Sequence record: MT150133.1
Direction: 5' to 3' (one strand)
Source of the DNA: Enterobacteria phage vB_EcoM_IME540
Length of the DNA: 64,000 bases
A model generated the notes under the pieces. It was given only the letters and a program-made list of their open reading frames with translations, searched no databases and was not told the DNA's origin. Every line of letters begins with the position of its first letter. The first letter of the stretch is position 1. The translations under genes were made by a program, and so were the position numbers. Below are positions 36,991 through 40,982 of this stretch, one piece after another.

Positions 36991-38973
36991 ATGGCTTTAT
37001 TATCACCGGGCATTGAGCTCAAAGAAACGTCCGTACAGAGTACTGTCGTTCGTAACGCAACGGGTCGTGCAGCGCTGGTTGGTAAATTCCAGTGGGGCCC
37101 TGCTTTCCAGGTAACTCAAATTACTAACGAAGTTGAACTGGTGGATTTGTTTGGAGGTCCTAATAACGAAGTTGCTGATTACTTCATGTCGGGTATGAAC
37201 TTCCTCCAGTATGGTAACGACCTTCGTACTGTTCGTGTTGTTAACCGTGAATTCGCTAAAAACGCGTCTCCGGTAGCGGGTAACGTCCAAACCACTATTA
37301 CTACTGCAGGTTCTAACTATGCGGTAGGCGATAAAATTAATATCAAATATAACCAGACTGTTGTTGAATCTGAAGGTCGTGTAACTTCGGTCGATACAGA
37401 CGGTAAAATTCTATCAGTGTTTATTCCTACCGGCAAGATTATTTCTTATGCTCGTTCTGTTAACCAGTATCCGAACCTAGGCCCTGCGTGGACTGCTGAA
37501 GTTACTTCTGCCTCTTCCGGTGTTTCTGGTACTATTACTGTCGGTAAAATTGTAACCGATTCCGGTATTCTGTTGACTGAAGCAGAGAACAGTGAAGAAG
37601 CTATTACTTCCCTGGAGTTCCAAGCATCTCTTAAACAGTTTGGTATGCCTGGTGTGGTCGCCCTTTATCCTGGTGAAATTGGTAGTACTCTAGAAGTTGA
37701 AATTGTTTCTAAAGCGGCTTATGATGCTGGTTCTACTAAAATGTTGGATATTTATCCAAACGGTGGTACTCGTGCTTCTGTAGCTAAAGCGGTATTCAAC
37801 TACGGCCCTCAGTCCGATAACCAGTATGCTATTATTGTTCGTCGTGATGGTGCAATCGTAGAATCCGTCGTACTTTCTACCAAAGAAGGCGAAAAAGACG
37901 TTTACGGTAATAACATCTATCTGGATGATTATTTCGCTAAAGGCACTTCGAACTATATCTTCGCTACCTCTCTGAACTGGCCGGCCGGTTTTAGTGGTAT
38001 CATCAATCTTATGGGTGGTGTATCTGCTAACGATCAGGTTACTGCGAGTGATTTGATGCAGGGTTGGGATTTGTTTGCCGACCGTGAAGCACTCCATATT
38101 AACCTTTTGATTGCTGGTGCCGTTGCCGGTGAAGGTGATGAAGTTGCTTCTACCGTCCAGAAACACGTTGTTAGTATTGCTGATGAACGTCAGGATTGCT
38201 TGGCATTTATTTCTCCTCCTAAAGGACTGTTGGTTAACGTTCCATTGACTCGTGCAGTAGATAATCTTATCGACTGGCGTACCGGTGCAGGTACTTTCGA
38301 TACCAACAACATGAACATTAGCACCACTTATGCTGCTATTGATGGTAACTATAAATATCAGTATGACAAATATAATGACGTAAACCGTTGGGTGCCTCTG
38401 GCCGCTGATATGGCTGGTTTGTGTGCACGTACTGATGATGTTTCTCAGCCTTGGATGTCTCCGGCAGGTTATAACCGTGGCCAGATTCTTAACGTTCTGA
38501 AATTGGCAATTGAACCACGTCAAGCACAACGTGACCGCATGTACCAGGAAGCTATTAACCCAGTTGTTGGTTTTGCTGGCGGTGATGGTTTCGTATTGTT
38601 TGGTGATAAGACTGCAACTAAAGTTCCATCTCCGATGGACCACATTAACGTTCGCCGTCTGTTCAACATGCTTAAGAAAAATATCGGTGATGCCTCTAAA
38701 TATAAACTGTTTGAATTGAACGACAACTTCACTCGTTCAAGCTTCCGTATGGAAGTTTCTCAGTACTTAGATGGTATTAAGGCACTTGGTGGGATTTATG
38801 AAGGACGCGTGGTTTGTGATACTACAGTGAACACCCCTGCGGTTATCGACCGTAATGAGTTTATTGCTAATATCTACGTTAAACCGGCCCGTTCTATTAA
38901 CTACATCACGTTGAACTTCGTTGCAACGAGCACTGGTGCTGATTTTGATGAATTGATTGGACCTTTAGTATAA
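36991..38973 (+). CDS. 18: tail sheath protein gp18
   Basis: 660 aa MALLSPGIELKETSVQSTVVRNATGRAALVGKFQWGP..., matches T4 gp18. Confidence 0.95.
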   Translation: MALLSPGIELKETSVQSTVVRNATGRAALVGKFQWGPAFQVTQITNEVELVDLFGGPNNEVADYFMSGMNFLQYGNDLRTVRVVNREFAKNASPVAGNVQTTITTAGSNYAVGDKINIKYNQTVVESEGRVTSVDTDGKILSVFIPTGKIISYARSVNQYPNLGPAWTAEVTSASSGVSGTITVGKIVTDSGILLTEAENSEEAITSLEFQASLKQFGMPGVVALYPGEIGSTLEVEIVSKAAYDAGSTKMLDIYPNGGTRASVAKAVFNYGPQSDNQYAIIVRRDGAIVESVVLSTKEGEKDVYGNNIYLDDYFAKGTSNYIFATSLNWPAGFSGIINLMGGVSANDQVTASDLMQGWDLFADREALHINLLIAGAVAGEGDEVASTVQKHVVSIADERQDCLAFISPPKGLLVNVPLTRAVDNLIDWRTGAGTFDTNNMNISTTYAAIDGNYKYQYDKYNDVNRWVPLAADMAGLCARTDDVSQPWMSPAGYNRGQILNVLKLAIEPRQAQRDRMYQEAINPVVGFAGGDGFVLFGDKTATKVPSPMDHINVRRLFNMLKKNIGDASKYKLFELNDNFTRSSFRMEVSQYLDGIKALGGIYEGRVVCDTTVNTPAVIDRNEFIANIYVKPARSINYITLNFVATSTGADFDELIGPLV

Positions 38974-39109
38974 TCTATTATCCCAGGCTGTAATATAAAG
39001 AACCTAAAACCATTATACCATGTGTTTGGTTACAGCGTACATCACGTAGAATTGCGCCTGGGATTGATTATTCTCTTGGAATATGATTTATCAACTGTAT
39101 AACTAAAAA

Positions 39110-39138
39110 CGTCGCAGGCGCAATCCTGCGACTTTCTG
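39110..39138 (+). terminator. terminator hairpin GTCGCAGG-CGCAAT-CCTGCGAC + TTTCT after gene 18
   Basis: Perfect 8-bp stem; A-run before and T-run after. Confidence 0.6.
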
Positions 39139-39141
39139 GTA

Positions 39142-39149
39142 TATAAATA
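39142..39149 (+). promoter_or_regulatory. late-type TATAAATA box immediately upstream of the HNH endonuclease gene
   Basis: Exact consensus only 5 nt before ATG 39155; function uncertain. Confidence 0.35.
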
Positions 39150-39154
39150 TAAGT

Positions 39155-39838
39155 ATGATTACTAATACTCTATTTGAAATACCTATAACAAATCGTAACG
39201 TTTCTGCTTTTAAAAATCTTGGGTATCAAGTTAAAAGTGGGAGCTCCCATTTAATAAAATTAGAAGACTGCCCTGGAAAAATTGCTGTTACGTGTAAATG
39301 TGATAAATGTGGCACTTATTATACTGTAACAAAAGGGCGACTTAATGAAACCAATTCTAAGTTCTGTAAAGAGCATCGTTGGGAAGTCTATTCAGAAACA
39401 AGAAAAGAATATTGGAATTCTGATGAAGGCATAAAAATCCGTAAAACCAAAGGGCCTAAAATTTCTAAGTCTAAAAAAGGTATAAAGATTGAAGCTTGTT
39501 CAGGACCTAAAAACGGAAGATGGAATCCTAACAAATCTGAACGTAATAAATATTATTATTCAGTGAGGTCTTTTACTAATAAGACTTTTAAAGAAGAAGT
39601 TGATAATCTACCAAATAGACATCTAAGCGGGATATGTGGTGTTAAAGGAGCTTATCAATTAGACCATAGGGTATCTATCAAATATGGATTTGAAAATGGC
39701 GTCCCTCCCGAAATAATAGGACACATTTGCAATCTAGAAATGATTCCTTGGGAAAAGAATCGAAGTAAAGATTCTAAAAATAGTATAGATTTAGATATGC
39801 TATTCCATTTAATTGAAGAATATGATAGGAAACACTAA
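39155..39838 (+). CDS. HNH homing endonuclease inserted between genes 18 and 19
   Basis: 227 aa; HNH core QLDHRVSIKYGFENGVPPEIIGHICNLEMIPWEKNRSK; Cys cluster CKCDKCGTYY; no gene at this position in T4. Confidence 0.75.
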   Translation: MITNTLFEIPITNRNVSAFKNLGYQVKSGSSHLIKLEDCPGKIAVTCKCDKCGTYYTVTKGRLNETNSKFCKEHRWEVYSETRKEYWNSDEGIKIRKTKGPKISKSKKGIKIEACSGPKNGRWNPNKSERNKYYYSVRSFTNKTFKEEVDNLPNRHLSGICGVKGAYQLDHRVSIKYGFENGVPPEIIGHICNLEMIPWEKNRSKDSKNSIDLDMLFHLIEEYDRKH

Positions 39839-39841
39839 CTT

Positions 39842-40333
39842 ATGGAACTTACGGATATCACTAGGGCCTTCGAGTCAGGTGACTTTGCACGCCCTAACCT
39901 TTTCGAAGTGGAAATTCCATTTCTGGGTAAAAACTTTAGCTTTAAATGTAAAGCAGCACCTATGCCGGCAGGCATTGTAGAAAAAGTACCGGTTGGCTAC
40001 ATGAACCGTAAAATTAACGTAGCCGGTGACCGTACGTTTGATGATTGGACCATTACCATTTATAACGATGATGCACATGACACCCGTCAAGCAATTGTCG
40101 ATTGGCAGAATCTCTGTCACGGTATGACCAATGAAATTACCGGTGCAGCACCTGCAGAATATAAGAAACAAGCAGTAGTTCGCCAGTTCCATCGTGACGG
40201 CAAGACTGTGACCAAAGAAGTTACAATTTACGGCTTATGGCCTACTAACGTTGGTGAAGTCCAGATGGACTGGGACTCGAATAACGAGGTAGAAACATTT
40301 GAAAGCACATTTGCTATTGACTGGTGGGAATAA
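39842..40333 (+). CDS. 19: tail tube protein gp19
   Basis: 163 aa ...TRAFESGDFARPNLFEVEIPFLGKNFSFKCKAAPMPAGIVEK..., matches T4 gp19. Confidence 0.95.
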   Translation: MELTDITRAFESGDFARPNLFEVEIPFLGKNFSFKCKAAPMPAGIVEKVPVGYMNRKINVAGDRTFDDWTITIYNDDAHDTRQAIVDWQNLCHGMTNEITGAAPAEYKKQAVVRQFHRDGKTVTKEVTIYGLWPTNVGEVQMDWDSNNEVETFESTFAIDWWE

Positions 40334-40400: not shown

Positions 40401-40982
40401 ATGTATTGTACTTACTTAACCATATACACGGGGTCTAAACTACCCCGTCGTTATATTGGCTCAACATACGTTGAAAGGATTCTCAAAGAAGGATATAATG
40501 GTTCTGTATTATCCCAAGCATATAAAAAGATTTGGAATCTAGAACGTAAAGAAAATCCGCACCTTTTCAAAACCAGAATTTTATCTTTATTTGAAACCGA
40601 TAAAGAAGCTCGTATAGCTGAGAAAGAGCTTCAAATAAAGTATAATGTAGTTAAATCTAAAAACTATATAAATATGTCATTAGCTCAGCCTGACGGGTTC
40701 TTTGGAATGTCTCGTAAAGGGATTCCAATGAGTGAACATGCCAAACAGCTACAAAGAGATTGTAGGTTAGGTAAAAAGAGGCCTGAACATTCTAAAGCTC
40801 TAAAAGGACGTAAGCGACCAGACCAAGCCAAAGCTATGTCTGGTGAAGGTAATCCGATGTTTGGTAAAGAACATCCGGCTAAAGGCAAAAAGATTAATCA
40901 GCCAAGGATGATTTGCCCTATCTGTGGTGTTGAATCAACTCGTTCGGCTATAACACGTTATCACAAACATGAAAATGAATGA
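40401..40982 (+). CDS. GIY-YIG-type homing endonuclease (seg-like) with NUMOD-like repeats and C-terminal zinc finger, inserted between genes 19 and 20
   Basis: 193 aa; N-terminal YLTIYTGSKLPRRYIGSTY; repeated basic GKKRPEHSKA / GKEHPAKGKK; CPICGV...H. Confidence 0.7.
   Translation: MYCTYLTIYTGSKLPRRYIGSTYVERILKEGYNGSVLSQAYKKIWNLERKENPHLFKTRILSLFETDKEARIAEKELQIKYNVVKSKNYINMSLAQPDGFFGMSRKGIPMSEHAKQLQRDCRLGKKRPEHSKALKGRKRPDQAKAMSGEGNPMFGKEHPAKGKKINQPRMICPICGVESTRSAITRYHKHENE

Follow-up and report, generated by a model that had tools for sequence, protein, structure and literature searches.

The window analysed here is a 64,000-nucleotide (nt) stretch of Enterobacteria phage vB_EcoM_IME540 (MT150133.1), and our subject is a 227-codon open reading frame (ORF), ORF227, which lies with its non-coding leader between the tail sheath gene (gene 18) and the tail tube gene (gene 19). 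Comparison with related phages indicates that ORF227 is a free-standing homing endonuclease gene (HEG), that its cassette entered a Dhakavirus genome downstream of the gene 19 late promoter and ahead of the start codon of that gene, and that the 5′ 127 nt of the leader are native to the phage; we put the probability of this reading at about 0.8. Genomes with and without the cassette are referred to below as HEG+ and HEG-, respectively.

Occupied and empty gene 18–gene 19 junctions

Megablast placed the window in Dhakavirus (JS98-like T4-type coliphages), with vB_EcoM_005 as the nearest record at 98.5% identity. A blastn survey with the 181-nt leader as the query returned 50 Dhakavirus records, all of which retain window positions 38974–39107 at 91–98% identity. 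Positions 39108–39154 and this ORF lineage occurred together in only four of the 50 records, representing two phages, vB_EcoM_005 and Bp7; the cassette is missing from the other 46. In JS98, WG01, IME281 and most other Dhakaviruses the gp18–gp19 junction is uninterrupted and free of ORFs, with a length of 185 nt, in agreement with a 2010 census that listed JS98 and JS10 without such genes (PMC2993671). A first-pass annotation of this DNA had pointed to the junction in relatives as the place to find the insertion boundaries, and an insertion polymorphism was indeed evident there. Similar presence/absence polymorphism was found in Karamvirus, Winklervirus, Gaprivervirus and one Klebsiella-phage group.

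In alignments of HEG- relatives with the window, the common sequence ends at …ATCAACTGT (39100). The native sequence continues as TATAAATA-AATTAATCAGAAC-hairpin arms GTTCCTGG…CCAGGAAC-TGACTTATGAGGCATCCC-ATG, that is, a late promoter, a hairpin, a Shine-Dalgarno sequence and gene 19. The window continues as ATAACTAAAAAC-hairpin arms GTCGCAGG…CCTGCGAC-TTTCTGGTA-TATAAATA-TAAGT-ATG(ORF227)…TAA-CTT-ATG(gene 19). At the left junction, ATAACTAA may be what is left of a decayed native late-promoter box, or donor DNA may already begin there. Over its final 120 nt, gp18 does not differ between the window and HEG- WG01/IME281. Because identity ends at 39100 on the left and silent changes are confined to the start of gene 19 on the right, the mobile segment probably spans about 39101 to about 39871. 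The features of the locus are as follows.

36991–38973 (+): gene 18 (tail sheath), the upstream flank, with Pfam sheath domains
38974–39154: non-coding stretch from gene 18 to ORF227, 181 nt
38974–39100 (+): native Dhakavirus 18–19 spacer, outside the insertion, common to all 50 Dhakavirus records, HEG+ or HEG-
38980–38988 (+): 5′ arm of the inverted repeat, ATCCCAGGC, within the native spacer
39056–39064 (+): 3′ arm of the inverted repeat, GCCTGGGAT, within the native spacer
39101–39108 (+): left junction, native TGT-TATAAATA-AATT… swapped for TGT-ATAACTAA-AAAC…
39111–39132 (+): G+C-rich terminator-like hairpin, 8 bp with a loop of 6, then TTTCT; among Dhakaviruses in HEG+ genomes only
39142–39149 (+): T4-type late promoter box TATAAATA (predicted promoter), exact match, with TAAGT (5 nt) to the ATG
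39155–39838 (+): ORF227, putative free-standing homing endonuclease gene, 227 aa, ATG start, PHROG 5104, '19.1' in some records
39155–39454 (+): N-terminal module, residues ~1–100, with a zinc-ribbon-like C49/C52…C71 motif, restricted to relatives between gp18 and gp19
39557–39835 (+): predicted C-terminal ββα-Me (HNH-type) nuclease domain; D170-H171 at 39662–39667, N193 at 39731–39733, N202 at 39758–39760
39827–39832 (+): AGGAAA within the last HEG codons, the sole Shine-Dalgarno-like element for gene 19
39842–40333 (+): gene 19 (tail tube), the downstream flank, PF06841, its ATG 3 nt past the HEG stop codon
39847–39871 (+): recoded 5′ end of gene 19, 8 silent substitutions relative to HEG- Dhakaviruses, including Arg8 CGT→AGG

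A recoded tract at the start of gene 19

Relative to WG01/IME281, the silent changes fall at gene 19 nt 6, 7, 9, 12, 22, 24, 27 and 30, and nt 31–428 contain at most one difference (Fisher p = 2e-9 for the clustering). The pattern recurs in other phages. When HEG+ genomes were compared with HEG- genomes in five genera, gene 19 nt 1–30 differed at 0.17–0.30 per nt and the rest of the gene at 0.009–0.09, a 3- to 30-fold higher density at the start (p values from 7e-3 to 6e-8). Nucleotides 21, 22 and 24 were altered in each HEG+/HEG- pair compared, and in the pair HMGUkp2 and L123 the differences in the tract were limited to nt 21–24 and 27. Codon 8 is CGY (Arg) in nearly all HEG- genomes and AGR, or AAA (Lys), in every carrier of the gene-19-adjacent type described below. 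These observations suggest recognition or cleavage of gene 19 at codons ~5–10; the recoding itself would represent either target immunity or co-converted donor DNA.

Origin of the hairpin and late-promoter module

The spacers ahead of gene 19 were compared among 79 gp19 loci in IMG/VR. HEG- Karamvirus genomes read …GGCCGCTCTGGCGAATCAGAGCGG-TATAAATA-TAACAGGAACTCAC-ATG(gene 19), and their HEG+ relatives (Entb_43 and L117) repeat that hairpin and box without change before TTCGT-ATG(HEG). Winklervirus (L107 versus CHI14) and the Klebsiella-phage group (L123/L124 versus HMGUkp2) show the same layout, with a hairpin region that is related, not identical. Thus HEG- genomes of all three groups carry a hairpin and then TATAAATA 13–17 nt ahead of the gene 19 ATG, and in their HEG+ counterparts the HEG ATG stands 5–6 nt past the box. 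T4 has two hairpin-TATAAATA modules. As judged from these alignments, hairpin-then-TATAAATA is the ordinary gene-19 late-promoter module of Karamvirus, Winklervirus and the Klebsiella-phage group.

The native Dhakavirus order is box and then hairpin; HEG+ Dhakaviruses show the reverse, foreign order. Since this order is foreign to Dhakavirus and matches the gene-19 promoter module elsewhere, positions 39101–39154 are probably a donor flank that arrived with the gene and not an HEG-specific leader. Six of the eight pairs of the imported hairpin are G-C, and folded alone it reaches -17 kcal/mol (z = -4.0); its tail is merely TTTCTGGTAT, with three consecutive T and six T in 10 nt. The first-pass suggestion that the leader belongs to the mobile unit is therefore borne out for the last ~47–54 nt (hairpin plus TATAAATA), seen only in HEG+ Dhakaviruses, but fails for the first ~127–134 nt containing the inverted repeat, which are 91–98% identical in HEG- Dhakaviruses.

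ORF227 has a predicted ββα-Me nuclease domain

ORF227 matches PHROG 5104 (E = 2e-77), and neither PHROG 5104 nor DUF7487 has an assigned function. Pfam searches at E ≤ 10 with ORF227 and six relatives gave only noise; NCBIfam, PDB sequence and PDB profile searches with ORF227 gave no match, and Foldseek against the PDB returned nothing significant (E > 1), with Cas9 HNH domains at the top of the ranking. The HNH assignment, unreadable from any curated profile, was established through structure prediction. The AlphaFold2 model has a confidence score (pLDDT) of 86 for the whole protein and 96.7 for residues 135–227, and its core is β-β-α. The catalytic core adopts the ββα-metal (ββα-Me) fold in this model, with a His at the end of strand 1, a structural Asn and an Asn/His metal ligand on the helix. 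In alignments of 146 relatives and of the 18 closest ones, D170, H171, N193 and N202 are invariant and K205, W199 and L194 nearly so.

A profile search of 1.84 billion representatives yielded 4,724 clusters at E ≤ 1e-3; in many of them DUF7487 or an HTH, NUMOD3 or treble-clef zinc-finger module is fused to the C-terminal domain. The 25 Pfam families found most often in the 146 relatives include DUF7487 and DNA-binding modules but no HNH family. By analogy, these modular partners match the usual homing-endonuclease design. The first-pass annotation had read ORF227 as a 227-aa HNH endonuclease between the sheath and tube genes, which are adjacent in T4. The location is correct, and T4 genes 18 and 19 are separated by a 116-nt spacer that contains no ORF. 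The predicted ββα-Me fold and the invariant D-H…N…N motif indicate, despite the missing profile match, that ORF227 very probably encodes a free-standing homing endonuclease whose catalytic domain is of the HNH (ββα-Me) type.

The family keeps to one locus and comprises two sub-lineages

We examined 80 IMG/VR loci with matches to ORF227. In 45 of them, which contain most of the protein or adjoin gp18/gp19 on a cut contig, the gene is always between gp18 and gp19, and this placement holds even where gp19 identity is only 30–37%; the other 35 matches, mostly to the C-terminal part only, are located elsewhere. Phage records with the same placement come from Dhakavirus, Winklervirus, Gaprivervirus, Karamvirus and Tequatrovirus (including pSs-1, RB3 and T6) and from Klebsiella, Acinetobacter and Sinorhizobium phages. 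Because the N-terminal ~100 residues track the gp18–gp19 locus, we infer that they form a site-specific DNA-binding module responsible for targeting.

Two sub-lineages share the spacer. The first, to which the window belongs, adjoins gene 19 and has its ATG 5–6 nt past TATAAATA. The second, represented by QL01, PSD9, pSs-1 and Roth77, adjoins the gp18 stop codon and has a GTG start with a Shine-Dalgarno sequence; its proteins are ~206 aa long with 34–37% identity to ORF227 (positions 2139–2759 in both the QL01 locus L003 and the PSD9 locus L005; also L010 from pSs-1 and L011 from Roth77). The QL01 and PSD9 copies have a TGGTATAAT extended -10 box upstream and 22–29 substitutions within the last ~127 nt of gp18. 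From these arrangements, each of the family's two sub-lineages appears to have its target on a different flank of the spacer. The gp18-adjoining type is also found in T6, RB3, RB7 and RB9.

The Bp7 gene (L002, 2256–2927) is chimeric, being ~95% identical to the window up to ~39470 (codon ~105) and 40–70% identical from there through the nuclease domain. The crossover coincides with the low-confidence linker that joins the two modules of the protein. This gene also has its own embedded TATAAATA, and a GGAGG stands ahead of its gene 19. On one IMG/VR metagenome contig (L019), a relative between gp18 and gp19 lies on the strand opposite to both. Labels of ORF227 relatives are inconsistent, ranging over 'hypothetical', 'gp19.1', 'holin', 'putative head morphogenesis protein' (T6), 'type II restriction endonuclease' and 'homing endonuclease', and several of these annotations are probably wrong; no relative in phage records is annotated as 'Hef'.

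Predicted expression signals of ORF227 and gene 19

In T4-type late promoters TATAAATA spans -13 to -6 (PMC1524935), and 5 nt separate the box from the ATG of ORF227, which places the predicted +1 at 39155, on the A of that ATG. The predicted +1 falls on the same base in HMGUkp2 and Entb_43 and one base upstream in CHI14. Leaderless mRNAs are weakly translated in E. coli, and the late HEG mRNA is predicted to be leaderless and weakly translated.

The box at 39142–39149 is the sole TATAAATA in the interval from gene 18 to the start of gene 19. Because this sole box precedes the HEG and AGGAAA lies in the HEG end, we infer that the cassette has taken over the expression signals of gene 19. A like arrangement has been described for other seg and mob genes in a review of T4 mobile elements, where it favours their retention (PMC2988022). 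The HEG-end sequence ATAGGAAACAA in relatives (ATAGGAAACAC in the window) equals the native gene-19 5′ untranslated region of Roth77-type phages, which suggests that the 3′ end of the ORF arose by reading into the gene-19 leader. The last codons of relatives, …GATAGGAAACAATAA, include the 11-nt ATAGGAAACAA; the window has a C just before the TAA (39822–39841). Upstream of gene 19, Roth77 (L011) and L122 read TATAAATA-TCTATAGGAAACAACG-ATG.

Proposed mechanism and alternative explanations

In the mechanism that we propose, the cassette (about 39101 to about 39871) would comprise a donor-type G+C hairpin, TATAAATA, ORF227, the 3-nt gap and the recoded first ~30 nt of gene 19, and would have replaced ~60 nt of native sequence containing the Dhakavirus gene-19 promoter, hairpin and Shine-Dalgarno sequence. 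During mixed infection, the nuclease would cut the HEG- allele in or near gene-19 codons 2–10, and the break would be repaired from the HEG+ genome via T4-type recombination, copying the cassette together with short flanks. The carrier's own gene 19 would be shielded from self-cleavage by the silent changes, which always include Arg8 CGY→AGR or AAA. The hairpin may attenuate read-through out of gene 18, and the late promoter would start at the A of the ATG to give a leaderless HEG message running on into gene 19. With the gene 19 ribosome-binding site placed within the last HEG codons, deletion of the cassette would remove the nearest promoter of gene 19.

A more ambitious form of this reading is less likely than not. 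It would make ORF227 part of a large, unannotated ββα-Me homing-endonuclease subfamily, the founding lineage of which is locked to the gene-19 late-promoter start and is expressed from a leaderless late mRNA; the zinc-ribbon module would read gene-19 codons ~5–10, and Arg8 CGY→AGR alone would give immunity. Leaderless dosage control, which belongs to this form, would if true be a mode not described for the T4 seg, mob and I-Tev genes in a 2010 review.

Several points weigh against insertion by a homing endonuclease as proposed. ORF227 matches neither a curated HNH profile (Pfam, NCBIfam or PHROG annotation) nor a PDB sequence, and we found no cleavage, homing or transcript data for members of the family. 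No Shine-Dalgarno sequence precedes the ORF227 ATG, and that leaderless messages are translated late in a T4-type infection is a supposition. The recoded tract could be passive donor DNA and not selected immunity. AGR/AGA at Arg8 also occurs in three HEG- genomes (L106, L126 and L164) with otherwise similar gene-19 starts; AGA in these genomes rules out the codon as an absolute marker of occupancy. A search for the donor of the left/hairpin flank gave no match beyond vB_EcoM_005/Bp7 in phage records, IMG/VR or JGI metagenomes.

ORF227 might instead be a passenger or a domesticated gene whose presence and absence result from ordinary homologous recombination at genes 18/19 and at the hairpin and promoter modules, in the manner of the promoter-early stem-loop (PeSL) cassettes, and which is retained for the promoter and ribosome-binding site of gene 19. 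We regard this as distinctly unlikely. The hairpin and promoter modules that flank the ORF are common to HEG+ and HEG- genomes, PeSL in RB49/phi1 provide a precedent (PMC2839356), and the Bp7 chimera with its crossover near codon 105 shows plain recombination acting here; gene 19 is served by no other TATAAATA. Yet the four catalytic-motif residues are intact and invariant in the 146 relatives, and dense silent recoding within 25 nt, in five genera and at the same codon each time, is not what neutral crossover predicts. The constancy of the locus where gp19 is only 30–37% identical likewise argues for sequence-specific targeting. Two further alternatives concern the leader. The first-pass annotation had described a 9-bp inverted repeat, a terminator-like hairpin and a TATAAATA box 5 nt from the ATG, each of which is present where it had been placed, and had joined them into one structured 180-nt unit. 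If the whole ~180-nt leader were a structured RNA of the mobile unit, the 9-bp stem, the terminator and a pairing of 39045–39063 with 39112–39130 could act as an attenuator of the endonuclease. The whole-leader fold does score z = -3.9, and the alternative helix, a 19-nt, 84% complementary pairing of the native spacer (3′ arm) with the imported hairpin that includes the perfect 10-mer ATTGCGCCTG/CAGGCGCAAT, reaches -30.3 kcal/mol (z = -4.9) when the 5′ arm is omitted. The whole-leader score, however, is owed mainly to the terminator hairpin. The native spacer folded alone is only marginally better than its shuffles (z = -1.9, with the same result for JS98), and a scan of 38800–40000 with Rfam 15 at E ≤ 10 gave just two matches, both inside the ORF and far under the gathering score (E ~7). 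These results do not support one structured unit. The stem is present in the DNA of all HEG- Dhakaviruses, and the spacers of other HEG-bearing genera showed neither a comparable long-range stem nor such an alternative pairing. An attenuator or antiterminator formed by 39045–39063 and 39112–39130 was ruled out, as both other HEG+ genomes, vB_EcoM_005 and Bp7, have an uncompensated central mismatch in the helix and the terminator still dominates there when the 5′ arm is blocked. The pairing is treated as coincidental and could be chance or a trace of junction formation. This explanation is thus highly improbable, being largely refuted by the HEG- relatives.

The native stem, 38980–38988/39056–39064, might still have an RNA function for the phage unrelated to the endonuclease, such as stabilising the 3′ end of gene 18 mRNA or marking a site for its processing. 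The arms ATCCCAGGC and GCCTGGGAT form a perfect 9-bp repeat spaced by 67 nt, the stem is conserved in the 50 Dhakavirus records, and it lies within the minimum-free-energy fold of both the window and JS98. In Bp7/QL01 the 3′ arm reads …GGGGT, an A→G change that keeps pairing as a G-U wobble; in JS98 it reads …GGGAG, an uncompensated change. JS98 and vB_EcoM_005 each break one pair of the stem, compensatory double changes were not seen, and the spacer is conserved no better than the flanking genes. Because perfect inverted repeats of at least 9 bp recur in 7–8% of shuffles of the 181-nt leader and in 3–4% of shuffles of the 127-nt native part, and the native-part fold is only marginal, the repeat is real yet statistically not compelling. 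With no similar stem seen in the spacers of other genera, we consider a function of this kind rather unlikely.

Relation to known systems

Under the insertion reading, one close parallel is mobE of Aeromonas phage Aeh1 and T4 (nrdA–nrdB), also a free-standing HNH-type gene in a short spacer between conserved essential genes; a late promoter and an RNA hairpin accompany it, and its target is the neighbouring gene (PMC2988022). In contrast to mobE, ORF227 has no HNH_3/NUMOD4 signature or Pfam HNH match, and its nuclease domain is C-terminal. Its hairpin also precedes the promoter, where it cannot mask a ribosome-binding site; none is present, the box standing 5 nt from the ATG. Since HNH_3/NUMOD is absent in the Pfam search and the nuclease domain is C-terminal, ORF227 is best placed outside the T4 Mob family. 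I-TevI and other T4 endonucleases controlled by late promoters and hairpins resemble ORF227 in apparently late-only expression from TATAAATA just upstream (PMC2988022). I-TevI differs in being an intron-encoded GIY-YIG enzyme whose late transcript begins inside the hairpin and frees the Shine-Dalgarno sequence, whereas the ORF227 transcript is predicted to begin at the AUG.

T4 SegF, SegG and SegB are likewise encoded between conserved genes, with short flanking tracts that co-travel and promoters of downstream essential genes tied to the cassette (PMC2988022, PMC2330249). Seg proteins are GIY-YIG enzymes, however, and the seg-type neighbour in the window is ORF193 (40401–40982), not ORF227. 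By position and description, ORF227 can be likened to the 'Hef-like' F-LimVIII of Dickeya phage LIMEstone1, a free-standing putative endonuclease of a non-classical family that adjoins the tail-tube gene of this T4-related phage (PMC3296691). Campylobacter phages, the source of the Hef-like reference genes in that study, gave weak matches to the ORF227 C-terminal domain. PeSL cassettes of RB49/phi1 also place a stem-loop and a promoter beside a variable ORF as a possible recombination site (PMC2839356); they differ in having sigma-70 early promoters, ORFans and hyperplastic regions, against the late TATAAATA, conserved virion module and predicted nuclease ORF found here.

T4-like phages are already known to harbour many free-standing homing endonucleases, and in that respect the basic finding is ordinary. 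What it adds is a likely function and a predicted target for a widespread ORF, present in ~250 phage records, nearly all labelled 'hypothetical', 'gp19.1', 'holin' or 'head morphogenesis protein', and with thousands of metagenomic relatives. It also offers a testable case of a phage late promoter positioned for a leaderless message. That the leader is mostly host-phage spacer cautions against inferring RNA regulation from one genome.

A second putative endonuclease gene and minor features of the region

The gene order in the region is gp17, gp18, the 227-aa ORF, gp19, a 193-aa GIY-YIG-like ORF and gp20. The latter ORF, ORF193 (40401–40982, +), between genes 19 and 20, is free-standing and GIY-YIG/seg-like, matching PHROG 314 'homing endonuclease' at 1e-29 and, weakly, SegE_GIY-YIG. 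The window shares it with vB_EcoM_005, Bp7 and QL01; JS98, WG01, IME281 and PSD9 lack it. The 3′ end of gene 19 beside it (nt 429–491, 40270–40332) contains a cluster of 15 substitutions. Two different putative endonuclease genes thus bracket the 492-nt tail-tube gene, each with a short recoded scar, and the arrangement may serve as a natural example of nested co-conversion.

The whole window contains 20 TATAAATA boxes versus 7.6 expected, 15 of them on the + strand, a distribution that fits a rightward-transcribed late-gene cluster. TATAAATA also precedes gp18 (36954), ORF193 (40363) and gp20 (40984).

Within the native spacer, a leader peptide from a 9-codon mini-ORF (ATG…TAG, 39020–39049) was rejected, because the mini-ORF lacks a ribosome-binding site and relatives differ in its first codons. 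The minus strand of 39014–39022 reads TGGTATAAT, and the motif CATTATAC(C/T)(A/G)TG recurs in the 18–19 spacers of Dhakavirus, Gaprivervirus and one Klebsiella-phage group, where it often sits in a hairpin loop. On the minus strand, the CATTATAC motif is a perfect -10 element (an extended -10 in Dhakavirus), with no convincing -35 seen, and is oriented antisense toward gene 18.

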